From Candidatus Melainabacteria bacterium 17Bon1m (GTDB lineage: Bacteria; Cyanobacteriota; Vampirovibrionia; Obscuribacterales; Obscuribacteraceae): a DNA stretch of 64,000 bases. The position numbers were made by a program, and so were the translations under genes. Positions 10,815 through 25,362 of this stretch are shown one piece after another. The stretch covers positions 128,001 to 192,000 of the forward strand of contig JAVLKG010000001.1 of NCBI GenBank assembly GCA_032128875.1, read 5' to 3'. A model generated the notes under the pieces. The model made no database searches. It was given only the letters and a program-made list of their open reading frames with translations, and was not told the origin of the DNA. Every line of letters begins with the position of its first letter. Within the stretch, counting starts at the first letter, position 1.

Positions 10815-10970
10815 TACGAGCGAAACATCTTTTTCTGCGCTTTTGATTTTGGACAAAGCACAATCTTTGCTTTAACTCCTTATATAGGGTGGCGGCAGCT
10901 TAAGCTCTATGACCGATATATGTGATTGGTCCCGTCTGGATATCTGATCGCCGCGACTTTAGTCTGGACA

Positions 10971-11320
10971 GTTGATCCGGCGCTTGTTAACAGAAAGTGC
11001 TTTGCGATCTCTATGTCTGAAGCGCATCTCTATAATGCCAAGAATGTGATCGTTAAATGATCTATGGGGTAGTTGATCGTATGCGCTGACGCGATAAACT
11101 AATTGCATAACCGGTGAGCACGTCACTTAAATGTTGAGTGCTTTGAGCCGAGGGGCATTTGTGGAAACTTCAGATCGGCGTCGATCGGAAACCGTAGCAA
11201 AAAGCCCGCACCACGTGAAGGACTGACTGAAGCGTGATGAAATACTGAGCTCTAATGCAAAGAGCAGTCAGGCAGTAGTAAGAATACCAGCGCAGAGCAA
11301 TCTGGCTGGTATTTTTATTT
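10971..11320 (+). ncRNA. Multicopy ~350-bp element, copy 1: upstream box, TATAAT (11031-11036), ~275-nt structured RNA candidate and terminator
   Basis: Near-identical to 12663-13011, 14301-14649 and 24079-24427. Stems show compensatory changes between copies and no reading frame is conserved in all four. Confidence 0.75.
11283..11320 (+). terminator. Intrinsic terminator of element copy 1
   Basis: AATACCAGC-GCAGAGCAATCTG-GCTGGTATT followed by a T-tract. Confidence 0.85.
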
Positions 11321-11367
11321 GCGCCCAACGGACGGCGCGCAGCCTTCAGACTCCATTTCGAAATCGG

Positions 11368-11515
11368 CCGCAGCGCCGGACTCCAGACGGCTTTTTCTGG
11401 GAGCGCCAGCTTCCAGCCGGCTTTTCTGGGAGCGCCAGCTTCCAGCCGGCTTTTTCTGGGACCGTCGGCTTCCAGCCGGCTTTTCCTGGGAGCGCCGGCG
11501 GCTCGCCGGCTTTTC
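11368..11515 (+). repeat. Tandem REP-like 29-30 bp units (TGGGAGCGCCRGCTTCCAGCCGGCTTTT), 4 clear and 1 degenerate
   Basis: Units start at about 11368, 11398, 11427, 11457 and 11487, each with an imperfect GCCGGC palindrome and no unique spacers. Confidence 0.85.
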
Positions 11516-11564
11516 TATAATGGAGAAGGAAACGCCTCTTTATTAGGCTGCCGGTCCACAATCT

Positions 11565-12599
11565 ATGTCGCTTCTCCTTCAGATTTCACTAGCGTTCGTT
11601 TTTCTTCTTTGGATACTTCCAATAATCCGAGGAGTTGAAATCTGTTTTCGCTCCATAACTCGTTTGTTAGGCGACTCCGCCGATCCCGATAGAGGTGCTC
11701 CTGCGCTCCTTGTCCCAAAGGAAGTTGAGCGCGATGTGCTTCGCCCTATCCCCTTCACTGATCATCGCTACCAGGAGCTCAGGAATGATGTGATTCGAGC
11801 TCGTGCATTGCTTAATCGTTCGCTGGATACTCAACTCGAACTTGAAGAACAGATTCGCGAACTGGAAGAAATCCCTCAGCATCAGGAAGCCGCAGTTACA
11901 GCAGATGCCATTGCAAGACTTCGGAAGGAAATCGATGAGCTTGCTCCACAGCACGACGCTCTGCGCGCTGAGCTGGCTGATAAGGAAAGCGCACTGCAGA
12001 AGGCTTATCCATTGAGACCGATGAGAGGCGCTGCTACAAAAACTGCATCTGCCGTCAAGAAAGAAAACCAAGCCCGTATTGCTAAGGCTGTTCAAACCAA
12101 AATTGACTTTGATGTCAAAAGACGCGAAGAATTTGCGAAAGAAACAAGGCATCGTGCTCAGATTCTTGCGCACATGCGCCTTGTCATTGACGCAGTTGAG
12201 AAACATGCAGTTGGTAAGAGGCGCATCGAAGAGTTGAAAGTCACGATGGAGACTTCGCACCGAGAGATTGAGACAATTAACGCTGTTCTCGCCGAGTGGG
12301 AGTCGAATGAAGATTTCCTATCAGAGAAGTTGGCGACCTTTGAAACCGGCAATGAAGCATTGCAGCGGAGAGTTGAAGAAGCCGCTCAGCGAGACGATCT
12401 CGAGGCTTTGGATGAGGCAGAGATGTTGCTGCTTGAACGTCAGGTTCAAGCCAGTAAGTTCAAGCTTTTGCTGGAAGACTCAATAAAGCAGGGGACCGAG
12501 TTGAAGGAATTGGGCAATAGATTCGAGAAAGTTCGCATTGCTATTTTGAAGAAGATTGTGGCAATTGAACCTAACTATCTCGATTTTAGGGTTGATTGA
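11565..12599 (+). CDS. Membrane-anchored coiled-coil protein, PspA/IM30-like (paralog 1)
   Basis: N-terminal hydrophobic helix and heptad-rich body. Shares the Y..L....IR.RALL.R and LR.EL..KE.....AY motifs with 13154-14236. Confidence 0.7.
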   Translation: MSLLLQISLAFVFLLWILPIIRGVEICFRSITRLLGDSADPDRGAPALLVPKEVERDVLRPIPFTDHRYQELRNDVIRARALLNRSLDTQLELEEQIRELEEIPQHQEAAVTADAIARLRKEIDELAPQHDALRAELADKESALQKAYPLRPMRGAATKTASAVKKENQARIAKAVQTKIDFDVKRREEFAKETRHRAQILAHMRLVIDAVEKHAVGKRRIEELKVTMETSHREIETINAVLAEWESNEDFLSEKLATFETGNEALQRRVEEAAQRDDLEALDEAEMLLLERQVQASKFKLLLEDSIKQGTELKELGNRFEKVRIAILKKIVAIEPNYLDFRVD

Positions 12600-12662
12600 T
12601 ATCGTTGGACTGGTCACGATGCTGTGTTTTTATATCCGATCGCCGTGGCGGTAGCTGCGCTT

Positions 12663-13011
12663 GTTGATCCGGCGCTTGTTAACAGAATTCGAATTGCGAT
12701 CACTATGTCTAAAGCGCATCTCCAAAATGCCAAGAATGGGATCGTTAAATGTACTGTGGGGTAGTTGAACGTATTTGCAAACGCGATAAACTAATTGCAT
12801 GAACGGTGAGCACGTCACTTAAATGTTGAGTGCTTTGAGCCGAGGGGCTTTGCGGAAACACTAGATCGGCGTCGATCGGAAGCAGTAGCAAGAAGCCCGC
12901 ACCACGTGAAGGACTGACTGAAGCGTGATGAAATACTGAGCTCGGATGCAACGAGCAGTCAGACAGTAGTAAAAATACCAGCGCAGAGCAATCTGGCTGG
13001 TATTTTTGTTT
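12663..13011 (+). ncRNA. Multicopy structured element, copy 2
   Basis: Begins GTTGATCCGGCGCTTGTTAACA, has -10-like CAAAAT, and ends in the terminator AAAAATACCAGC...GCTGGTATTTTT. Confidence 0.75.
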
Positions 13012-13049
13012 TTGCTGATTTGCGCGGATGCGCTGCCCGAGAGAGTGGC

Positions 13050-13107
13050 CGGAGCGTCAGCTTCCAGCCGGCTTTTGCCTGGGAGCGCCGGCGGCTCGCC
13101 GGCTTTT
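13050..13107 (+). repeat. Two REP-like units of the same family as 11368-11515
   Basis: GGAGCGTCAGCTTCCAGCCGGCTTTT and TGGGAGCGCCGGCGGCTCGCCGGCTTTT, followed by TATAATGGAG as in the first cluster. Confidence 0.85.
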
Positions 13108-13153: not shown

Positions 13154-14236
13154 ATGTCGCCACTCCTGGGAATCTCACTAGCGATAATTGTTTTGCTCTG
13201 GGTGATTCCGCTTGCTTGGGCGGTTTCAACTGGCATACGCGCACTACCTCGTTTGGTCGGGGAGTTGATTGATTTCTTCAGAGACTTTTCCAAGCTCAGG
13301 AAAATGTCTGAAGGCGAAAGACACCTCTTGCGCAAAGAGTTACAGCTGGAAGCCGACTATCAGAATCTTCAGGATGAACTGATCCGTATCCGAGCTCTTC
13401 TTGCACGTACAATCGCTTTCAAAAAAGAGCTACTTACAAATATTCAGTCATTGACCAACGAAATATTGGAGAGCGATGCAATTCGAAAGTGCTCAGACAA
13501 TGAGCACCTTTCTGCCCGTGAACGACTTAAAGCGCTTGAACGAGAAGCTGCTGAAGTTGAATTTAAGATTGCTTCTCTTCGTTTTGAGCTGGAAGAGAAA
13601 GAGCTAGGAGTAATGCGAGCTTATTCTAGAAAACAAGTTGTGATTGCCAAAGACAAAGCTGACAATGCTACCGAGAAGGCGCGCAAAATTCTCGACCTTG
13701 TGGAAGCACAACATGCTGAAAATCCGTTACTTAAAATGGAGTTGAAGGTTCGGGCTCGGGAGGCTTCGGCTGATGCAGGTCTTGGTTCTGCAGTTTCTCA
13801 ACAGGCTCTTTCAACCTTTGTTGAGGCAGTTTTTCGCTTGCACATTGAATCTATGCCCTTGGAAAACCTCCAGAAGCTGATTCAACCAATCAATGATGTT
13901 GTAGGAGAGGTCACATCACTTGTGCTGTACCGAGAAGCTATCGAAGAGGTTTTGTCAATGCAGATGAGGTCTTCGGAAGCCGATCTACAGTCTTGGAAGC
14001 ATAAGGCAGCTGAAGCTGCCGCAGAAGATAGACAGTTGCTCATTAAGCAAGCAGAGGTCAATCAGCTTGAGTGCGAAGTTCAGATCGCAAAACAAATCCG
14101 TCAGCTCAAAGAGGAAAGAAACAAATTGGCTGATCTCAGACTCCTTGAAATGAAACTCGCAAAACGAAAAGACGAGATTCTGATGAAGATCGCCGACCTT
14201 CAGGGTGGAGATATGGACTTTTCGCCTGGCGAATAG
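13154..14236 (+). CDS. Membrane-anchored coiled-coil protein, PspA/IM30-like (paralog 2)
   Basis: TM anchor, then LQDELIRIRALLARTIA, KMELKVRAREA and WKHKAAEAAAEDRQLLIKQA, which resemble PspA/Vipp1 helices. Confidence 0.72.
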   Translation: MSPLLGISLAIIVLLWVIPLAWAVSTGIRALPRLVGELIDFFRDFSKLRKMSEGERHLLRKELQLEADYQNLQDELIRIRALLARTIAFKKELLTNIQSLTNEILESDAIRKCSDNEHLSARERLKALEREAAEVEFKIASLRFELEEKELGVMRAYSRKQVVIAKDKADNATEKARKILDLVEAQHAENPLLKMELKVRAREASADAGLGSAVSQQALSTFVEAVFRLHIESMPLENLQKLIQPINDVVGEVTSLVLYREAIEEVLSMQMRSSEADLQSWKHKAAEAAAEDRQLLIKQAEVNQLECEVQIAKQIRQLKEERNKLADLRLLEMKLAKRKDEILMKIADLQGGDMDFSPGE

Positions 14237-14300
14237 TGGTTGTGCACATGTGTGTTTCCCCTGTTCTAATAGTCTGATCGTTGTAGTGTTAGCTGTGTCT

Positions 14301-14649
14301 GTTGATCCGGCGCTTGTTAACAGAATTCGTTTCGCTATCGCTATGTCCGAAGCACATCTCGATAATGCCAAGAATGAGATCGTTAAATCATCTCTGGGGT
14401 AGTTGAACGTATTCGCAAAGGCGATAAACTAATTGCATAACCGGTGAGCACGTCACTTAAGTGTTGAGTGCTTTGAGCCGAGGGGCTTTGCGGAAACACT
14501 AGATCGGCGTCGATCGGAAACCGTAGCAAGAAGTCCGCAACACGTGAAGGACTGACTGAAGCGTGATGAAATACTGAGCTCGAATGCAACGAGCAGTCAG
14601 GCAGTAGTAAGAATACCAGCGCAGAGCAATCTGGCTGGTATTTTTGTTT
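14301..14649 (+). ncRNA. Multicopy structured element, copy 3
   Basis: Same boundaries and stems as the other copies, -10-like GATAAT, terminator at 14612-14649. Confidence 0.75.
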
Positions 14650-14785
14650 GCTGTGGTCGCCTTAAGAAGAGTATACTCACGGCAATCAAGCAGTCTGCCT
14701 CTCACTTGACTTTGTTGGTGAATGGTTCAGCAATGTTTTCTCATTTTTTTGTCTTGCAGGGAACATTGGCGCGTCCATCGGCTCT

Positions 14786-17700
14786 TTGATTGAGGAAACT
14801 CTCTTCACTGACCGGTGGTGGATGAAGCAGGTATCGCTTCCAATTTTTGCTCTCTTAGAAGGTGGAAACAGGCAGGAATTCTCTGCTGAAGAGCTGCCTT
14901 TGCGGGCTGAGCTGTTCAGCGCCGACCAGATGGAGCAGCATGGCAGGACCCTTGCCGGACTTCATAAGGTTGAATTTGGGCGAGCGCCAGATCAGCTGTT
15001 GGCTCGCCTGGCAGAAAACGAGCAGGTTTTGACTTATGCCTGCAATATGCTCACAGAAGCCGTCAATGACAACAGACGCATTACCTCTGCCGGTGAATGG
15101 CTTCTAGACAATTTCTACCTGATCGAAGAGCAGATAAGAACAGCCAAGAGGCACTTACCGAAGGGCTATAGCCGGGAATTACCTCACCTGATCAGTGGTG
15201 TGTCAGTGGGATTTCCTCGGGTCTATGACATCGCGCTGACCAATGTTTCGCATGGCGATGGAAAGTTGGACCCGGATAGCCTCGATCGTTTCGTGGCTTC
15301 TTACCAGACTGTCACAGAGTTGAAGATTGGCGAACTGTGGGCTATCCCGATTATGTTGCGGTTGGCTCTCATTGAAAACTTGAGAAGAGTCGCAGTGCGA
15401 ATGGTTATTCATATGAATGAGCATTTGCAGGCTGGTATCTGGGCCGACAAAATGATCGATGTAGCGACCAGTGATCCCAAAAGTTTGATTCTCGTGATCG
15501 CAGATATGGCGCGCTCCAATCCACCGATGGTAAGCGCTTTCGTCTCGGAGTTAGCTCGAAAGCTGCAAGGGCAAAGTTCGTCTCTGGCTTTAGGGCTGAC
15601 ATGGATGGAACAGCGTTTGGCAGAAGCCAGCACCTCCATTGAACAAATGGTACAGGCTGAAGCGCAAATTCAAGCTGCTGACCAAGTTTCGATCAGCAAC
15701 AGCATTGGCTCGCTTCGCTTTCTGGGAGCCATGGACTGGCGGAAGTTTGTTGAAGGGCAAAGCGTCGTTGAAAAAACTCTTCTTGAAGATCCGTCTGGTG
15801 ACTACGGCAAGATGGATTTTTCCACTCGTGACGATTACCGACACGTTGTTGAAAAGCTGTCAAAGAAATGTCGGTTGTCCGAAAAAGAGATTGCGCTTGC
15901 TGCGGTACAACTGGCGAAGAGCAATAAAAATGGTGATGCGAGAAGTAAGCACGTCGGTTTCTATCTGATTGATAAGGGACTGCCGGAACTTGAGAAAACG
16001 GTCGCAGTCAGATTTTCTCTCTGGGATTTGTGCAGACAGTTTGGACGCAGATATTCGCTCATCTCCTATCTGGCTCCAATATTTCTTATTACTTTTGCAG
16101 TCACCGCTGCACTTGCATACGCTGCACATGCGCATGGTGAATCCAAACAGTTTGTCGCAATTACCGCCGTAGTTACATTCGTCAGTGCCAGTCAGTTAGC
16201 CGTATCCCTGGTGAATTGGCTGGCGACCCTTCTGATTCCATCCAAACCGCTTCCGAAGCTTGATTACTCCAAAGGAATTCCTCGCGAGGAACGAACTTTA
16301 GTAATCGTCCCCACGATGATCTCGAGCGTTAGCAATATTGAAGATCTCGTAGAAGCCCTCGAAGTTCGCTTTCTTGCCAACCGAGACGAGAACTTGAGCT
16401 ATGCCTTGCTGACGGACTTTCTCGATGCTGACTCCGAATCGTTACCGCAAGACGAACTCTTGGTGAAAACGATAACCAGCAAGATCAATGAATTGAATCA
16501 GAATTACAAGTCCGGTCCGCGCGATATCTTCTTTCTCTTTCATCGGCCTCGTTTATTCAATCCAGCCTCAAATGTTTGGATGGGCTATGAACGCAAGCGG
16601 GGAAAATTGTCCGCGCTGAATAGTGTTCTTCGTGGAGGCAGTGCAGATTGCTTTTCAACTATTGTCGGCGACTACAAGTCGCTGGTTGGCACCAAGTTTG
16701 TAATCACGTTAGACACCGATACACAGCTTCCGCGTGATGCCGCCCGGCAATTTGTCGGCGCGATGATGCATCCTCTGAATAGAGCGCATTTCGATGAAAA
16801 CAGAAAATTGGTAACCAGTGGATATGGGATTCTTCAACCTCGCGTTGGAGTTTGCCTGCCCGGCACAAGTCTGTCTCGCTATGCGGCTCTGCAGGGAAAT
16901 GATCCTGGTATAGATCCTTATACTCGGGCTGTTTCTGATGTATACCAGGATGTGTTCTATGAGGGCTCATTCATCGGTAAAGGTATTTACGATGTTGAGA
17001 TTTTTGAAAAAACGCTAAGTGATCGTTTCCCTGAAAACTGCATCCTAAGCCACGATTTGCTCGAAGGCTGTTACGTGCGTTCTGGACTTTTAAGCGACGT
17101 CCAACTTTACGAAGAGTATCCCTCCGGTTACAGTGCAGACGTCGCCAGGCGTCATCGCTGGATTCGTGGTGACTGGCAGATCATTTCATGGTTAGGCGGG
17201 GATGTTCCTGTTTTAGGAAAGAGAAGGCAAAAAAATCCAGTTTCCTTTCTATCGCAGTGGAAGATCTTTGACAATTTACGCCGAAGCCTTGTACCTTCAT
17301 CGCTAGTTACAATGTTGATTGTGGGCTGGGTTTCACCGTCACCATCTTGGATTTGGACTGCATCAGCCTTGGCGATCCTTTTCATTCCTTCAATCGTCTC
17401 TTCTTTGTTGGAGTTAGTACGTAAGCCTGAAGACGTTCTCTGGAATCAGCATATTGCAAGCGCTCTGAGTTCTTCTGCGCGCAATTTGGGGCAAGCGATG
17501 TTCAATCTCGCGTGTCTTCCGTACGAAGCAACATACAGTCTTGATGCCATCTTTCGAACTCTGTTTCGCATGACTGTGACGAAAAAACATTTACTGGCTT
17601 GGTATCCGTCGAGTGAAGCCAATCGCAAACAACGTCGAGATTTCGTGGGCATTTATTCCCAAATGTGTAGCGCACCCACAATTGCATTAGGTGTTCTTGC

Positions 17701-20700
17701 TTATGTGATTGCGCAAAAGCCATTAGATATTGTTGCTGTTGGACCGATAGTCTTGCTCTGGATGTTTTCGCCGGCGATTGCCTGGTGGTTGAGTCGTCCG
17801 CTAGCAGTTAGTGGTTCCAATCTGACTGACGAACAACGTATTTTTCTTCGCAAAATTGCTCGTAGGACATGGGCTTTTTTCGAGACATTTGTAACGGCTG
17901 AAGACCATTGGCTGCCACCTGATAACATGCAAGAGTTGCCTATACATGTGGTTGCACATCGCACGTCGCCAACCAACATGGGAATGTCTTTATTGGCCAA
18001 CCTCGCGGCTTACGATTTTGGCTTTATTCAGTCGGGCGAATTGGTTGAGCGCACGTACAGCACCCTGGTGACAATGCGTGCTCTAGATAGTTATAGAGGG
18101 CATCTCTATAACTGGTATGACACTATAACGCTTAAACCGCTCAAGCCCTTGTACGTGTCCACTGTAGACAGCGGCAATCTCGCTGGACACCTTATCACAC
18201 TGAAAGCTGGACTCTTGGAGCTGTTTGATGAGCCAGTAATCTCCGTGCAGGTCTTTTCTGGACTACAAGATACGCTTGACGTGCTCAAACAGACTGTCGG
18301 GGAGAAGATTGTTATCCCTGAATTAACCACATTTGATGACCTTCTCAAGACAGCGAAACTTGACCCTCCTACCACAGTCACTGGTCTTCATGAATGGTTC
18401 GAGCAACTTCAGAAATGCGCTGAAGAAATAACCATTCGCGTTGGCGAAACACCGGGCACGGAGATAAAGCATTGGGTGCAGGCTCTTAAACGTCAGGTGT
18501 CTGCTGCGTTGATGGAGCTGACTTTGTTGATTCCGTGGACGGCGTTGCCGGGCTTGAATACTGTGTCTGAGAGGATCCCGCAGATTGAACAGACTCCTAC
18601 TTTGCGAGAACTGTCAACAATATACGACAGCCTGTCTCCGATCATTCAGAAGAGTTGTACGTCTGACCGTCCAATGCAAGAGCTAAAATGCTTCGCCGAA
18701 TTGTTGGCGCTCCTTTCCGAAGCCAGTCGTCGCGCAAAGGAGCGCATCGGCATTATTAGTCAACTTGTGATGCATGTCGAAGAACTAGCCCAAATGGAAT
18801 ATGACTTTCTTTATGACAAAAGCAAAAGGTTGCTGGCGATCGGTTATAACGCCGATGAGAAAAGAGTGGATGCCAGCTACTACGATTTGCTCGCGTCCGA
18901 AGCGCGTTTGTGTAATTTCGTCGCGATCGCACAGGGGCAGTTGCCGCAGGAAAGCTGGTTTGCTCTGGGACGGTCGTTAACAACGGCGGGTGGCAAGCCC
19001 GTGTTGTTCTCCTGGTCTGGCTCCATGTTTGAATATTTAATGCCATTGCTGGTAATGCCAAACTATAAAAATACTCTGCTAGATCAAACATACCATGCGT
19101 CAATTGAGAGACAAATTGAATACGGTAATCAGCGAAATGTGCCATGGGGAATTTCCGAGTCAGGGTATTTCGCGGTTGATGCGCATCTCAACTACCAGTA
19201 TCGTGCCTTTGGTGTTCCCGGGTTAGGCTTAAAACGTGGATTGGCGCAAGATCTGGTTATTGCGCCATATGCGACGGTGCTGGCATTAATGGTGGTGCCT
19301 GATGAGGCCTGCGAAAATTTGGAGAGGTTGACGTCTGAAGGTTTCGCAGGATCATACGGATTTTATGAGGCTGTTGACTATACTGCCGCGCGAATTCCGC
19401 GCGGACACAGCAGAGCAATTATTCAATCGTATATGGCGCACCATCAGGGCATGAGCTTTCTCTCCCTTGCTTACACTCTGCTCGATCAACCTATGCAACG
19501 GCGCTTTGTGAGCGATCCATCATTTCAATCTACTCTACTTTTGCTGCAAGAGAGAATACCTAAGGCGACGGCGTTCCACTCGCAAACGGCAGAAACCGCA
19601 GAGGTGCGCTTCGGGTCCGCGGCTGATGAAGCGCCGGTCCGTTTCTTTAGCAGTCCTAATACGACAGTTCCCGAAATACAGCTACTATCCAACGGTCGAT
19701 ATCATGTGATGATGACGAACGCGGGCGGCGGCTACAGCCGCTGGAAAGACCTGGCTATAACCAGATGGCGTGAAGATACAACGCGCGACAACTGGGGAAC
19801 GTTTTGTTTTATTCGGGACGTATCAACCGGTGAATTCTGGTCGACAGCATATCAGCCAACTCTCAAGCAACCCGATAGATACGAAGCAATTTTCTCTGAG
19901 GCACGTGTCGAGTTCCGCAGGCGCGACTTTGATTTCGACACACATACCGAAATCGTCGTTTCTTCAGAGGACGATATTGAGTTGCGAAGAGTACGCATAA
20001 CAAATCGCTCCCGGTCACGCAAGACGATTGATGTGACGAGCTATGCTGAAGTTGTGCTTGCAAATCCTAATCATGATAATGCGCACCCTGCATTTAGTAA
20101 TTTATTTGTGCAAACGGAGCTTATCGATCAGGGTCATGCAATTCTCTGCAACCGCCGACCGCGATCTGCGAATGAGCATCAGCCGTGGATGTTCCATTTG
20201 ATGTCTGTTCATGGTGCCACCACAGGAGATGTGTCACGAGAGACAGATCGTGCGAAGTTTATTGGCCGTGGAAATTCACTCTCTAACCCTTCTGCTATGA
20301 ACACTCCGGGACTGCTATCGAATACCCAAGGTTCTGTACTTGATCCTGTCGTTTCGGTTCGTTATCAAATAGTTCTTGACCCTGAAAAGTCCGCGATAGT
20401 AGACATAGTTACCGGTGTTGCCGACACCAGAGAAACTTGCATTAGCTTGGTCGAGAAATATCAGGATAGAGGGCTTGCTGATCGTGTTTTTGATTTGGCC
20501 TGGACACACAGTCAGGTTGTGTTGCGTCAGTTGAACGCTAATGAAGCGGACGGTCAACTTTATGCTCGCTTGGCGAATTTAGTGGTCTATGCAAGCAGTA
20601 CACTGCGCGCCGACGCTTCCGTGATAATCAAAAATCGGCGTGGTCAGTCCGATTTGTGGGGATATGCAATATCCGGCGATTTGCCGATTGTTTTGCTGCA

Positions 20701-23533
20701 GATCCGTGACCCTAATAACATTGACCTTGTCAGACAAGTTGTACAAGCGCATGCGTACTGGCGTCTCAAGGGGCTTGCCGTTGATCTCGTTATTTGGAAT
20801 GAAGATAAAGCGGGATATCGACAGCTGATTCAAGACCAGATCATGGGCTTGATCGCTGGTGGCGTTGAGGCTAGTCTGATAGACAGGCCCGGTGGAATAT
20901 TTGTCCGTCAAATTGAACAAATTTCGATTGAAGATCGTATTTTGTTGCAAACGGTCGCCCGCGCAATTATCAAAGACAGCAATGGAACTCTCCCTGAGCA
21001 GCTTAATCGGCGCAGTGTGCGGGAAGTTCGGATGCCGGCTCTAACTCCTGTGCGCACGCATCAGGCTGAAAGCAAATCTAGTGTTGTTCCGCAAAGAAGT
21101 GATTTGATATTTTTCAATGGTTTGGGAGGCTTTACTTCTGACGGTCGAGAATATGTAATTAGCACTGCGCACGGTCACGTGACTCCGTTGCCTTGGGTAA
21201 ATGTGCTGGCTAATCAGTTCTTCGGCTCCGTTGTCTCCGAGAACGGACTTTCTTATACCTGGCTTGAAAATGCCCATGAATTCCGACTCACTCCTTGGCA
21301 CAACGATCCAATCACAGATGAGTCAGGAGAAGCATTTTATGTCCGCGACGAAGAGACCGGTCACTTCTGGTCACCAACCCCGATGCCTGTGCGCGGTGCT
21401 ACTCCGTACACAACACGTCACGGTTTCGGGTACAGTGTATTCGAGCACACCGAGGGCGGTATCACAACGGAATTGTGTGTGTTCGTTGTCCTTGATGCGC
21501 CAGTGAAGATATCTGCACTTAAGGTCCGCAACAATTCGGGGCGTGCAAGAAAATTGTCTGCAACAGCCTATTTCGAATGGGTATTCGGTGATCTGCAACC
21601 TAAGACCGTCATGCATGTTAGCACCGAGATTGATACAAAGACTGGAGCCCTGTTCGCGCGTAATCCATATAACAGAGAATTCGGAGACCGGATCGCTTTT
21701 GTAGACGTCGACGACATCATGCGTTCTGTAACCGGGGATCGAGCGGAATTTCTTGGGCGCAACGGAAGTTTGCGCAATCCCGCAGCAATGAGTAAGCAAA
21801 AACTGTCGGGTCGAGTTGGCGCTGCACTTGACCCTTGTGGTGCTGTGCAGGTTGCATTCGATCTTCAAGACGGTGAAGAGAGAGAGATTATTTTCCGGCT
21901 TGGTATCGGACGCGACGAAAGCGATGCCAATAATTTGATCAATCGCTTTCGCGGCAGCAAAGCCAGAAACGATTCATACGAAGCGCTTTGCCAGTATTGG
22001 AAACACACTCTGGGCGCACTCAACGTGCAGACACCCGATCCTGCATTAAACATGCTGGCAAATGGCTGGTTGCTATACCAGACGATTGCCTGCCGCCTGT
22101 GGGCTCGAAGCGGCTACTATCAGTCCGGTGGTGCTTTTGGTTTTAGAGATCAGCTTCAAGATGCTATGGCACTAGTGCACACAGAACCATTGCTTTTGCG
22201 AAAGCAATTGCTCTTATGCGCTTCGCGCCAGTTCGTGGAAGGCGATGTTCAGCACTGGTGGCACCCTCCAACAGGACGTGGTGTTCGTACGCGTATTTCG
22301 GACGATTACCTCTGGCTGCCCCTGGCTGCTTGTCGCTATGTAATGATGACCGGTGACACAGGTGTTCTCGACGAGCAAACGCATTTTCTTACCGGCCGCC
22401 CAGTCAATCCTCAAGACGATTCCTATTATGATTTGCCGGGGCGTTCGCAAGAAACAGCGAGCCTTTATGAACACTGCCAGAAAGCCATCCTGAATGGCTT
22501 GAAGTTTGGTGTTCATGGTTTGCCGTTGATGGGAACAGGCGATTGGAACGACGGTATGAATCTCGTCGGCGAACACGGGGAGGGCGAGAGTGTTTGGTTA
22601 GGTTTCTTCCTTCATGAGGTTTTGCGAAGATTTGTTCAATTGGCACGTCTTCGGAAAGACGAAGCATTTGCGAGTCGCTGTGAAGCGGAAGCCGCGCAGT
22701 TGAGGCAACACATTGCAAAAAGTGGATGGGATGGGGAATGGTATCGTCGCGCCTATTTTGATGACGGAACACCACTAGGTTCTTCCACAAACCCTGAATG
22801 CAAAATCGATTCTATTTCGCAAAGCTGGTCAATCCTGTCCGGCGCTGGAGAAATTGAACGTTCTAAGAAGGGCATGCAATCTGCGTATCAGCATCTAGTT
22901 CGCCACGAAAGTTCTTTGATTCAACTTCTTGATCCACCCTTTGATAAATCTGAGTTGAATCCTGGCTACATCAAAGGCTATGTTCCTGGTGTTAGAGAAA
23001 ACGGCGGACAGTACACCCATGCAGCAATTTGGTTGACAATGGCGTTTGCTGCACTTGGAGATAGCAAACGAGCCTGGCAGCTGTTCTCGATGATAAATCC
23101 GGTAAACCATGCGCTCGATCCCAACAGTATGCAGACCTACAAAGTAGAACCATATGTGGTGGCGGCGGACGTCTATGCTGTTTCGCCGCATACTGGGCGA
23201 GGTGGGTGGACTTGGTACACAGGTTCAGCAAGCTGGATGTATCGCCTGATTATCGAATCAATCTTAGGTATCCGCCTGCAAGTTGACCAGCTTCGCTTTC
23301 AACCCTGTTTGCCGGAAGAATGGCCTGAATTTAAAATCCACTACCGCTATCGCGAGACTGTTTATCACATAACAGTGATTCATAGAGCTGACAACGAAAA
23401 GCATCAGACGGTTACACTGAATGATGTAGTCCAACCTGATGGCGCGATAAAACTGGTCGACGATCGACGCGAGCATCTTGTTGTCGTGAGTGTTGGTCGC
23501 AGCTCGGAACGTACTTTTTCACCAACAGCCTGA
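14786..23533 (+). CDS. ndvB: Cyclic beta-1,2-glucan synthase (Cgs/NdvB/ChvB type: GT84, glucoamylase-like and GH94 phosphorylase domains)
   Basis: 2915 aa with WMGYERKRGKL, TLDTDT, SHDLLEG, RHRWIRGDWQ, YDLLASEARL, QSGGAFGFRDQLQD, DWNDG and RENGGQYTHAA. Exact start uncertain. Confidence 0.95.
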   Translation: MIEETLFTDRWWMKQVSLPIFALLEGGNRQEFSAEELPLRAELFSADQMEQHGRTLAGLHKVEFGRAPDQLLARLAENEQVLTYACNMLTEAVNDNRRITSAGEWLLDNFYLIEEQIRTAKRHLPKGYSRELPHLISGVSVGFPRVYDIALTNVSHGDGKLDPDSLDRFVASYQTVTELKIGELWAIPIMLRLALIENLRRVAVRMVIHMNEHLQAGIWADKMIDVATSDPKSLILVIADMARSNPPMVSAFVSELARKLQGQSSSLALGLTWMEQRLAEASTSIEQMVQAEAQIQAADQVSISNSIGSLRFLGAMDWRKFVEGQSVVEKTLLEDPSGDYGKMDFSTRDDYRHVVEKLSKKCRLSEKEIALAAVQLAKSNKNGDARSKHVGFYLIDKGLPELEKTVAVRFSLWDLCRQFGRRYSLISYLAPIFLITFAVTAALAYAAHAHGESKQFVAITAVVTFVSASQLAVSLVNWLATLLIPSKPLPKLDYSKGIPREERTLVIVPTMISSVSNIEDLVEALEVRFLANRDENLSYALLTDFLDADSESLPQDELLVKTITSKINELNQNYKSGPRDIFFLFHRPRLFNPASNVWMGYERKRGKLSALNSVLRGGSADCFSTIVGDYKSLVGTKFVITLDTDTQLPRDAARQFVGAMMHPLNRAHFDENRKLVTSGYGILQPRVGVCLPGTSLSRYAALQGNDPGIDPYTRAVSDVYQDVFYEGSFIGKGIYDVEIFEKTLSDRFPENCILSHDLLEGCYVRSGLLSDVQLYEEYPSGYSADVARRHRWIRGDWQIISWLGGDVPVLGKRRQKNPVSFLSQWKIFDNLRRSLVPSSLVTMLIVGWVSPSPSWIWTASALAILFIPSIVSSLLELVRKPEDVLWNQHIASALSSSARNLGQAMFNLACLPYEATYSLDAIFRTLFRMTVTKKHLLAWYPSSEANRKQRRDFVGIYSQMCSAPTIALGVLAYVIAQKPLDIVAVGPIVLLWMFSPAIAWWLSRPLAVSGSNLTDEQRIFLRKIARRTWAFFETFVTAEDHWLPPDNMQELPIHVVAHRTSPTNMGMSLLANLAAYDFGFIQSGELVERTYSTLVTMRALDSYRGHLYNWYDTITLKPLKPLYVSTVDSGNLAGHLITLKAGLLELFDEPVISVQVFSGLQDTLDVLKQTVGEKIVIPELTTFDDLLKTAKLDPPTTVTGLHEWFEQLQKCAEEITIRVGETPGTEIKHWVQALKRQVSAALMELTLLIPWTALPGLNTVSERIPQIEQTPTLRELSTIYDSLSPIIQKSCTSDRPMQELKCFAELLALLSEASRRAKERIGIISQLVMHVEELAQMEYDFLYDKSKRLLAIGYNADEKRVDASYYDLLASEARLCNFVAIAQGQLPQESWFALGRSLTTAGGKPVLFSWSGSMFEYLMPLLVMPNYKNTLLDQTYHASIERQIEYGNQRNVPWGISESGYFAVDAHLNYQYRAFGVPGLGLKRGLAQDLVIAPYATVLALMVVPDEACENLERLTSEGFAGSYGFYEAVDYTAARIPRGHSRAIIQSYMAHHQGMSFLSLAYTLLDQPMQRRFVSDPSFQSTLLLLQERIPKATAFHSQTAETAEVRFGSAADEAPVRFFSSPNTTVPEIQLLSNGRYHVMMTNAGGGYSRWKDLAITRWREDTTRDNWGTFCFIRDVSTGEFWSTAYQPTLKQPDRYEAIFSEARVEFRRRDFDFDTHTEIVVSSEDDIELRRVRITNRSRSRKTIDVTSYAEVVLANPNHDNAHPAFSNLFVQTELIDQGHAILCNRRPRSANEHQPWMFHLMSVHGATTGDVSRETDRAKFIGRGNSLSNPSAMNTPGLLSNTQGSVLDPVVSVRYQIVLDPEKSAIVDIVTGVADTRETCISLVEKYQDRGLADRVFDLAWTHSQVVLRQLNANEADGQLYARLANLVVYASSTLRADASVIIKNRRGQSDLWGYAISGDLPIVLLQIRDPNNIDLVRQVVQAHAYWRLKGLAVDLVIWNEDKAGYRQLIQDQIMGLIAGGVEASLIDRPGGIFVRQIEQISIEDRILLQTVARAIIKDSNGTLPEQLNRRSVREVRMPALTPVRTHQAESKSSVVPQRSDLIFFNGLGGFTSDGREYVISTAHGHVTPLPWVNVLANQFFGSVVSENGLSYTWLENAHEFRLTPWHNDPITDESGEAFYVRDEETGHFWSPTPMPVRGATPYTTRHGFGYSVFEHTEGGITTELCVFVVLDAPVKISALKVRNNSGRARKLSATAYFEWVFGDLQPKTVMHVSTEIDTKTGALFARNPYNREFGDRIAFVDVDDIMRSVTGDRAEFLGRNGSLRNPAAMSKQKLSGRVGAALDPCGAVQVAFDLQDGEEREIIFRLGIGRDESDANNLINRFRGSKARNDSYEALCQYWKHTLGALNVQTPDPALNMLANGWLLYQTIACRLWARSGYYQSGGAFGFRDQLQDAMALVHTEPLLLRKQLLLCASRQFVEGDVQHWWHPPTGRGVRTRISDDYLWLPLAACRYVMMTGDTGVLDEQTHFLTGRPVNPQDDSYYDLPGRSQETASLYEHCQKAILNGLKFGVHGLPLMGTGDWNDGMNLVGEHGEGESVWLGFFLHEVLRRFVQLARLRKDEAFASRCEAEAAQLRQHIAKSGWDGEWYRRAYFDDGTPLGSSTNPECKIDSISQSWSILSGAGEIERSKKGMQSAYQHLVRHESSLIQLLDPPFDKSELNPGYIKGYVPGVRENGGQYTHAAIWLTMAFAALGDSKRAWQLFSMINPVNHALDPNSMQTYKVEPYVVAADVYAVSPHTGRGGWTWYTGSASWMYRLIIESILGIRLQVDQLRFQPCLPEEWPEFKIHYRYRETVYHITVIHRADNEKHQTVTLNDVVQPDGAIKLVDDRREHLVVVSVGRSSERTFSPTA

Positions 23534-23888: not shown

Positions 23889-24078
23889 GATCCTATTTAC
23901 TCCAATTTTGTCAGTGATTTTCCGTACACCAGCGAGACTGGGCGCCTGTGGGAAAAGTTCCTTCTGAAAACCGGGAACCCTGGGAAGTCAGGATGGGCGG
24001 GGTATAGCGGTATCAGTAGCGGGGTATATCTAATCGATCTCGCGAACGTATACGATCGGCGCTTTTGCTGACTCGCCT

Positions 24079-24427
24079 GTTGATCCGGCGCTTGTTAACA
24101 CAACACGTGCTGCGATCGCTATGTCCAAAGCGCATCTCGATAATGCCAAGAATGGGATCGTTAAATCATCTATGGGGTAGTTGAACGTATTCGCAAACGC
24201 GATAAACTAATTGCATAACCGGTGAGCACATCACTTAAGTGTTGAGTGCTTTGAGCCGAGGGGCTTTGCGGAAACACTAGATCGGCGTCGATCGGAAACC
24301 GTAGCAAGAAGCCCGCACCACGTGAAGGACTGACTGAAGCGTGATGAAATACTGAGCTCATTTGCAATGAGCAGTCAGGCAGTAGTAAGAATGTCACCGC
24401 AGAGCAATCTGGGTGGCATTTTTGTTT
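24079..24427 (+). ncRNA. Multicopy structured element, copy 4
   Basis: Same boundaries as the other copies. The terminator stem is changed to AATGTCACC/GGTGGCATT but still pairs. Confidence 0.75.
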
Positions 24428-24447
24428 GTTTGCTTTTGGGAGGCGTC

Positions 24448-25362
24448 ATGGAAGTTGGTGTAATCGGGCTCGGCAGTATGGGTTTCGCGATAGCTTCGCA
24501 CATTCTGGTGGCAGGGCACGAAGTTACTGTCTACAACCGCACCGAGGAGAAAGCACATCCTTTAATGGAAGATGGCGCAATGTTCTCGCATGATCCTGCC
24601 GGTGCTGCGCAGGGAGACGTGGTCATCACGATGCTATCCGACGATCACGCTGTCGAGAGTGTGGTGTTTGGAACAACAGACGCTTCAGGTGGCACTCAGA
24701 ATGAAGCGGTCGACGGATTGCTAATGCATCAAGCTCCGGATTGTATACATGTTTCGATGAGCACCATCGGCGTTCAGCTGGTGAAACGGCTCGAGCGTGA
24801 GTACGCTGCTAAAGGAAAGCAATTTATTTCCGCGCCTGTGATGGGGCGTCCAGATGTCGCTGAGCGCGGAGAATTAGTTGTTATGGCATCTGGAAGCAAA
24901 GCTGCAATTGAGAAGTGTCAACCTGTGTTTGATGTAATTGGCAGAATTACTCACGTGGTTGGTGACAGCCCTGTGCAAGCTGCAACGATAAAGCTTGCAG
25001 CAAATTTTATGCTTAGCTCGATGATAGAGACACTCGGCGAGGCTTTCGCACTCGTGCGTAAGAATGGAGCGGACCATCACAAGTTCTTAGACATCATGGC
25101 GAAGGATTTTTTCAAATCACCCATATATGAAAAATACGGAGCAATTATTGCGCACGAAAAATTTGGTGGTGGTGCGTTCACCGTGAAGTTGCAAGAAAAG
25201 GATACGCGTTTAGCAGTTGCTGCGGCGATTGAATCGCAAGTTCCGATGCCGCTGTTATTTGCAATTGAAAACGCTTTTCTCAGTTCTATCGGACAAGGTA
25301 AAGGCGATATGGACCCTTGTGCTATTGCGCAACTTGCCGCCGAGAATGCCGGTTTGCGTTGA
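24448..25362 (+). CDS. NAD(P)-dependent beta-hydroxyacid dehydrogenase (3-hydroxyisobutyrate/6PGDH-like)
   Basis: GVIGLGSMG, YNRT, SMSTI, APVMG and KLAAN motifs. GGAGG precedes ATG 24448; the track start at 24367 lies inside the element. Confidence 0.92.
   Translation: MEVGVIGLGSMGFAIASHILVAGHEVTVYNRTEEKAHPLMEDGAMFSHDPAGAAQGDVVITMLSDDHAVESVVFGTTDASGGTQNEAVDGLLMHQAPDCIHVSMSTIGVQLVKRLEREYAAKGKQFISAPVMGRPDVAERGELVVMASGSKAAIEKCQPVFDVIGRITHVVGDSPVQAATIKLAANFMLSSMIETLGEAFALVRKNGADHHKFLDIMAKDFFKSPIYEKYGAIIAHEKFGGGAFTVKLQEKDTRLAVAAAIESQVPMPLLFAIENAFLSSIGQGKGDMDPCAIAQLAAENAGLR

Follow-up and report, generated by a model that had tools for sequence, protein, structure and literature searches.

The window analysed here, 64,000 nt of one contig of Candidatus Melainabacteria bacterium 17Bon1m, contains four direct repeats of ~357 nt each, all on the + strand, and positions 11223-11320 form the 3' portion of repeat copy 1. 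These repeats raise the question of whether the base changes among them reflect selection on pairing in a functional structured nucleic acid, as the preliminary description had claimed, or are those of a neutral duplication, and further what the molecule is, how it is expressed, where it occurs and by what mode it may act.

Family membership of the four repeats

When the whole window was scanned with Rfam 15, all four copies matched RF03041 (poplar-1 RNA) on the + strand. Each match was full length (model positions 1-141 of 141), and scores ranged from 143.8 to 150 bits against a gathering score of 110.5 bits. Aside from poplar-1, the sole Rfam match in the window was a tRNA. Altogether, eight poplar-1 genes were found in the source genome (7.55 Mb, 93% complete), four of them in the window. 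The repeats and their matches were placed as follows:

10965..11322, + strand: copy 1 conserved block (upstream region, RNA gene and terminator), from the alignment of the four window copies
11142..11282, + strand: copy 1 RF03041 match, 143.8 bits, model positions 1-141
12657..13013, + strand: copy 2 conserved block, with the putative upstream box at 12745-12766 and the -10 hexamer at 12787-12792
12834..12973, + strand: copy 2 RF03041 match (Rfam scan), 148.7 bits, with the predicted terminator at 12973-13005
14295..14651, + strand: copy 3 conserved block, with the putative upstream box at 14383-14404 and the -10 hexamer at 14425-14430
14472..14611, + strand: copy 3 RF03041 match (Rfam scan), 145.7 bits, with the predicted terminator at 14611-14643
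24073..24429, + strand: copy 4 conserved block, with the putative upstream box at 24161-24182 and the -10 hexamer at 24203-24208
24250..24389, + strand: copy 4 RF03041 match (Rfam scan), 150 bits, with the predicted terminator at 24389-24421

Full-length, above-threshold membership in a curated family bears out the earlier claim, which favoured a functional structured nucleic acid over neutral duplication. Rfam classes RF03041 as 'Gene; sRNA'. The family was reportedly first reported by Weinberg et al. in 2017 and is said to have been first described from environmental DNA of poplar wood; the main text of that paper (PMC5737381) does not use the word 'poplar'. The window copies shared the helices of the model as well as its conserved blocks (UUUGAGCCGAGGGGC, GGAAAC twice, GAAGGACUGACUG, GAAAUACUGAGC and AGUAGC, present in all four copies in the 96-copy alignment described below), and nothing spoke against membership.

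Two other identities were considered and rejected. With permissive settings, poplar-1 was the sole Rfam family to reach its threshold in 10900-11560, the other rows having E-values of at least 0.24. Rows for a second RNA family in the same DNA, two C/D-box snoRNA rows among them, thus all fell far below threshold; the snoRNA rows probably reflect a UGAUGA...CUGA arrangement of copy 1 that is not conserved among the copies. A small protein-coding ORF was rejected on the grounds that indels of 1 and 2 nt occur inside the element among the copies and that the changes track base pairing rather than codons. The four repeats are, with high probability, four paralogous, separately transcribed poplar-1 RNA genes.

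Fold and covariation

Across the RNA region (~240 columns), 26 columns varied among the four copies: 16 were unpaired and 10 were paired, the latter making up seven pairs, all seven of which remained standard in every copy. The individual changes reported in the preliminary description were recovered. The GCUCN/NGAGC hairpin (11249-11253 with 11261-11265 in copy 1) closes with an innermost pair (11253/11261) that differs among the copies, being T-A (copy 1), G-C (copies 2 and 3) or A-T (copy 4), with TGCAA in every loop. The terminator arms, ATACCAGC (11284-11291) and GCTGGTAT (11305-11312) in copies 1-3, are replaced by ATGTCACC and GGTGGCAT in copy 4 with pairing kept; the five positions changed comprise two full compensatory changes (A-U to G-C and G-C to C-G) and a single wobble (C-G to U-G). 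The GGGC/GCCC stem reads GTCC in copy 3, giving one G-U pair. A fourth stem, CGC/GCG (11084-11086 with 11091-11093), is present and varies in its loop as described, but it lies upstream of the likely transcription start. Placed between the upstream box and the -10 hexamer, it probably belongs to the promoter DNA rather than to the RNA.

By themselves, four copies carry little statistical power, and enlarged alignments settle the question. The first (A2) comprised 96 distinct copies, obtained as matches to the Rfam model in the source genome and its relatives and as sequence-pattern matches in the genomes of 185,579 species; the pattern fixes most of the P2 loop, so that variation there is censored in A2. 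The second (A3) comprised 53 copies found by the covariance model only, from the source genome and the genomes of 28 relatives, among which distant genera and a second family are represented. The structure tested, 61 pairs in all, was compared with 500 shuffles and with versions whose partners were shifted (slid) by 1-3 columns. Relatedness among the copies is not accounted for in the shuffles; it affects neither the slid controls nor the count of distinct pair types.

In A2, 98.1% of cells were standard pairs (88.7% in shuffles), and both-sided changes occurred in 42 of the 61 pairs (25.6 in shuffles, with 0 of 500 shuffles as high). Slid partners were paired in 32-41% of cells. The corresponding values in A3 were 95.0% paired (81.6% in shuffles) and both-sided changes in 50 of the 61 pairs, again with 0 of 500 shuffles as high, and 33-41% for slid partners. 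Thus, with more sequences, no shuffle of either alignment reached the observed pairing or covariation, and every helix that the preliminary description had named within the RNA was backed by covariation in the 96 and 53 copies. Gene conversion between copies could add to likeness within one genome; the covariation spans genera and therefore cannot be explained by concerted evolution. A2 had 47 invariant columns, many at unpaired positions. Copy 1 had a folding energy of -75 kcal/mol; its z-score was -4.38, and none of 200 shuffles was as low. Near-invariant U-G pairs (24-63 and 134-164 in A2) together with the T run identify the + strand as the transcribed strand.

The helices of copy 1 were located as follows:

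11112-15/11147-50, + strand: H1, clamping P0 (covariation)
11118-26/11133-41, + strand: P0, 5' hairpin (covariation)
11153-56/11204-07, + strand: P1 of the three-helix arm
11160-62/11197-99, + strand: P1a of the three-helix arm
11173-77/11182-86, + strand: P1b of the three-helix arm
11209-16/11232-39, + strand: P2, 3' hairpin
11243-47/11273-77, + strand: P3, 3' hairpin
11249-53/11261-65, + strand: P3a
11223-28/11266-71, + strand: pseudoknot, 6 bp

All helices of the poplar-1 model (P1, P1a, P1b, P2, P3 and P3a) form and covary, each being 91-100% paired with double-sided changes; the exception is the innermost P3a pair, which was 64.9% paired among the 53 copies of A3. The three-helix arm contains a symmetric internal loop with GGAAAC on each strand. 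H1, the P0 hairpin, the terminator and the promoter box are not covered by the 141 positions of the model, while the pseudoknot was found inside it. H1 joins CGGU of the invariant CGGUGAG to GCCG within UUUGAGCCGAG, a block left unpaired in the model; this helix was 100% paired in A3, with C-G replaced by G-C in four copies and one G-C to A-U change. H1 encloses P0, in which all eight pairs showed both-sided changes in A3.

The pseudoknot joins CUGACU of the P2 loop to the complementary AGUCAG on the 3' strand of the P3 internal loop and so ties P2 and P3 together. It was 94.3% paired in A3, with both-sided changes in five of its six pairs. Variants in A3 included CUAGCUG/CAGCUAG (four copies), UUAACAG/UUGUUAA (two copies) and, in the second family, UUUGGCU/AGCCAAA. 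The pairing of 178-180 with 203-205 that was preferred by RNAalifold had no pair with both-sided changes and was rejected. The Rfam register of P3 was kept because it covaries, and it adds one pair, 180-207. In a mutual-information search the top pairs were those of the structure; the remainder track subfamilies and do not pair.

Transcription unit, genomic setting and distribution

The upstream region of copy 1 and its predicted transcript comprised the following elements:

11035..11042, + strand: motif (A/T)TGCCAAG, which recurs upstream of many copies elsewhere (by eye, in sampled rows)
11053..11074, + strand: putative upstream box TTAAAT-N8-GGGGTAGTT (motif alignment)
11084..11093, + strand: palindrome CGC-TGAC-GCG in the promoter spacer, probably not transcribed
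11095..11100, + strand: -10-like hexamer TAAACT (TAnnnT), 23 nt after GGGGTA and 11 nt before CGGTGAG
11107..11320, + strand: predicted poplar-1 transcript, ~210 nt (covariation and folding)
11282..11320, + strand: predicted intrinsic terminator, with its stem at 11282-11296/11301-11314 and a T run at 11312-11316 followed by ATTT

The same order of motifs (TGCCAAG, TTAAAT, 8 nt, GGGGTA(G/C)TT) was shared upstream of 99 distinct copies. The box read GGGGTA in 89 of the 99, GGGGGA at the same place in nine, and was divergent in one. A TAnnnT hexamer, most commonly TAAACT, followed GGGGTA in 81 of the 99 copies, at a distance of 23 nt (72 copies) or 24 nt (nine copies), and in 69 of those 81 it ended 11 nt before CGGTGAG. 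In the whole 7.55 Mb of the source genome the box pattern matched eight times, and all eight matches were at poplar-1 genes. Shared upstream motifs and a box exclusive to poplar-1 genes in the genome favour reading each copy as its own transcription unit. The box is probably a binding site for a regulator.

A few copies carried 11 extra nucleotides between box and hexamer, giving a spacing of 34 nt instead of 23 (contig C10 of the source genome, 81692-81760, and loci L081, L091 and L107). As 11 nt is one helical turn, this variation would fit a protein site facing the polymerase better than a fixed -35 element. A simple sigma-70 scan left the poplar-1 promoters unflagged (TTGATC-16-TAAACT scored 8 of 12, with a cut of 9), and the terminators of poplar-1 genes were likewise unflagged in the same scan. 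The spacer at 11079-11094 held a GC palindrome of 3-4 bp that read CGC..GCG, CCGA..TCGG or GCC..GGC in different copies with its symmetry kept. This palindrome is explained by neither a simple operator nor the proposed start, and because its symmetry is kept despite the varying sequence, transcription could begin further upstream.

Judged from the sequence, the RNA of copy 1 would start at ~11106-11108 and would end at the predicted terminator, in which 12 of 14 stem pairs covary and the hairpin is followed by a U run. The transcript is thus probably ~70 nt longer than the Rfam model. Assembled contigs with poplar-1 sequence were found in four RNA-seq runs from four studies. The soil, activated sludge and wastewater runs gave stand-alone contigs of 178, 173 and 165 nt without flanks, identical to the body of copy 1 where aligned (from 11122, 11118 and 11126, respectively, to 11290); the 178-nt contig had nine further 5' letters that did not fit. 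In the plankton run, nearly the whole of a 661-nt stretch was covered. The contig ends coincide with sites where the copies differ and so may be assembly breaks, and one RNA library had very long, genome-like contigs, so that DNA may be present. These contigs are a weak hint that the RNA is made and are silent on its ends or amounts. In one preprint, poplar-1 is named among the small RNAs enriched in intracellular RNA in a drinking-water metatranscriptome (10.1101/2025.10.18.683149).

The genes beside the eight copies of the source genome were mutually unrelated: a PLP-dependent enzyme, two coiled-coil membrane proteins, a 2915-residue cyclic glucan synthase-like protein, a dehydrogenase, a TauE exporter, a POT transporter, UbiD, and dut-dapB-asd. 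The copy on contig C2 was tail to tail with the POT transporter gene. A constant position upstream of one gene class was not found at the eight loci, and this variation of neighbours from copy to copy favours action in trans. Some copies in relatives lay just ~500-730 nt apart. Clustering of ORFs at 33 loci, in the search for a conserved neighbour encoding a partner, gave only genus-level synteny and dut-dapB-asd. The dut-dapB-asd locus was common to the source genome and three other genera and hence may be ancestral.

Copies 1-3 form a tandem duplication with a unit of ~1.65 kb (RNA gene and coiled-coil gene). The paralogous proteins between the copies were 27% identical (E = 2e-19), whereas the RNA genes and their upstream regions were 85-91% identical. 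This disparity is independent evidence of constraint on the RNA genes, to which gene conversion may contribute.

Several observations were made on the sequences flanking the window copies. The two paralogous genes (11565-12599 and 13154-14236) encode, by eye, a hydrophobic N-terminal stretch resembling a membrane helix and a charged, coiled-coil-like region. Neither had a Pfam match above cut-off, and the second had a weak match to PspA/IM30 (E = 7.8e-4). In other genomes of the genus, relatives of both likewise separate copies of poplar-1; a weak third paralogue was found on contig C4. Copies 3 and 4 flank the gene for the 2915-residue protein (14786-23533), which has glycosyltransferase 2, glucoamylase-like and GH94 domains and is cyclic beta-1,2-glucan synthase-like; two genomes of the genus with copies ~9.4-10.5 kb apart suggest the same arrangement. 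The ribosome-binding site and ATG of a 6-phosphogluconate-dehydrogenase-like gene (24422-24460) fall within ~25 nt of the copy 4 terminator, and similarly close spacing occurred in two relatives of the genus. Just past copy 1, at 11372-11514, a 30-nt unit is repeated 4.8 times. Several units carry a GC-rich hairpin (GCCGGC..GCCGGC) and a T run, and the units resemble a row of terminators. The same hairpin, GCCGGCGGCTCGCCGGC followed by TTTT, also precedes the second coiled-coil gene, at 13087-13103. Contigs of one RNA library at 11475-11520 end in many different sequences, which suggests that the hairpin is repeated elsewhere.

In the genomes searched, poplar-1 was restricted to one order of non-photosynthetic cyanobacterial relatives, in which it was near-universal and multi-copy. 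The host order (Candidatus Obscuribacterales by its record titles) was represented by 107 genomes, of which 101 contained poplar-1 at 1-14 copies each, 98 with matches above threshold. Completeness of the six genomes without a match was 65-97%. An even sample of the rest of the phylum (150 genomes from 29 families) gave no match. In a first sample, all 24 genomes of the source family contained poplar-1, all three genomes of the sister family had matches just below threshold (96-109 bits), and none was found in 13 genomes from six other families of the class. The pattern scan of 185,579 species' genomes returned 82 stretches, nearly all in records titled Candidatus Obscuribacterales, Obscuribacteraceae, Melainabacteria or 'Cyanobacteria bacterium'; a few bore other names, and the title of one isolate was simply 'bacterium'. 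Four records (L052, L053, L109 and L115) titled as a proteobacterium or photosynthetic cyanobacteria had 4-8 poplar-1 genes each. Their matches were at the same contig coordinates as those of genomes of the source family (G018, G052, G094 and G110), so the titles are probably wrong.

Candidate modes of action and related systems

Protein binding is tentatively put forward as the most likely mode of action. The rigid fold would present invariant unpaired nucleotides (GGAAAC twice, GAAGGA, UUUGA and GCAA) as a surface, the displayed surface would bind or titrate a protein, and the several gene copies at different places would set the dose. Protein binding is favoured by the combination of a compact, pseudoknotted fold with many invariant unpaired nucleotides, as well as by the symmetric GGAAAC internal loop and the lack of a long conserved single strand. 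Searches for a CsrA gene (PF02599) gave no match in the source genome (93% complete), while the controls (E. coli, B. subtilis and T. maritima) were positive. The best-known kind of GGA-binding partner thus appears to be missing, which counts against protein binding, and a CsrA sponge of the Csr/Rsm type is unlikely because no CsrA gene was found in the genome.

A base-pairing regulatory RNA is possible, though we lean away from it. Unpaired stretches (the P2 loop, GGAAAC or the 5' end) would pair with mRNAs or an sRNA, as in Qrr and Yfr2. Such a mode suits a multi-copy, stand-alone gene with its own terminator, and Yfr2 of cyanobacteria is reported to be likewise multi-copy, at unconserved loci, and to act by pairing (PMC6778093). 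However, most of the conserved nucleotides of poplar-1 are inside the compact fold, the longest conserved unpaired runs are ~6 nt, and the P2 loop is taken up by the internal pseudoknot. Additionally, a crude genome-wide count of complementary 11-mers revealed no hot spot; the highest count was 17, where ~3.6 would be expected, and counts for the P2 loop were 3-7.

A ligand-binding or catalytic RNA, in which the pseudoknotted core and its invariant nucleotides would form a pocket or active site, is unlikely. The pseudoknot, the 47 invariant columns, many unpaired, and the strict order-wide conservation are all in keeping with such an RNA, but there was no sign of cleavage, and the other Rfam matches were far below threshold, as given above. 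The loci had no consistent downstream gene and the fold no pairing that competes with the terminator, and the element is therefore not a riboswitch.

Control of neighbouring genes by a cis-acting leader or 3' element is very improbable. The end of copy 4 lies ~25 nt before the start of the next gene, and copies 1 and 2 precede the paralogous coiled-coil genes, as might be expected of such an element; against it are the different neighbours at the eight loci, the tail-to-tail placement of the contig C2 copy, the strong terminator with a covarying stem on every copy, and tandem copies without room for an intervening gene. Finally, a selfish or neutral repeat without RNA function (a mobile element, or a duplication homogenized through gene conversion) would account for copies that are many, in part tandem and very alike within one genome, yet it can be practically dismissed given the compensatory changes across genera and families, the near-universal presence in the order, the dut-dapB-asd locus common to several genera, the free divergence of adjacent coding DNA, and terminal repeats or a transposase not having been seen.

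Returning to protein binding, poplar-1 could be a signature riboregulator of the Obscuribacterales, abundant, encoded by up to 14 genes under one private promoter box, and capturing a protein; this fuller proposal is held with considerable reserve. If true, poplar-1 and its protein would make up a new regulatory system analogous to Csr/Rsm or 6S, and would do so in a lineage without CsrA. Since poplar-1 is already catalogued in Rfam, the element itself is not new, and the host, the pseudoknot or the clustering may already appear in its original description. No study of poplar-1 function was found in the literature searched. The present analysis adds the host order, the near-universal multi-copy state, a probably longer transcript, the covarying pseudoknot, the 5' clamp and the private upstream box. 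These offer experimental handles: the box for the putative regulator, the invariant loops for the partner, and public metatranscriptomes for the conditions of expression.

Three known systems are closest. Like poplar-1, Qrr-type sibling sRNAs are encoded by several nearly identical genes, each under the same special promoter. The Qrr RNAs are ~100 nt long, work with Hfq and have a long single-stranded seed, whereas no long conserved single strand was seen in poplar-1. The protein-sponge RNAs CsrB and RsmX-Y-Z are, like poplar-1, multi-copy and stand-alone, with GGA motifs exposed in loops. The CsrB/Rsm-type RNAs likewise have a conserved upstream activating site at every gene. In comparison, poplar-1 has just three GGA motifs and a compact pseudoknotted fold instead of a string of hairpins. 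Yfr2 is unlike poplar-1 in size and fold. The family is reported to be driven by a dedicated regulator (PMC6778093; PMC6191309), and, by analogy only, it shares with poplar-1 the character of a clade-conserved small RNA with several copies per genome, unconserved loci and, putatively in the case of poplar-1, a regulator of its own.
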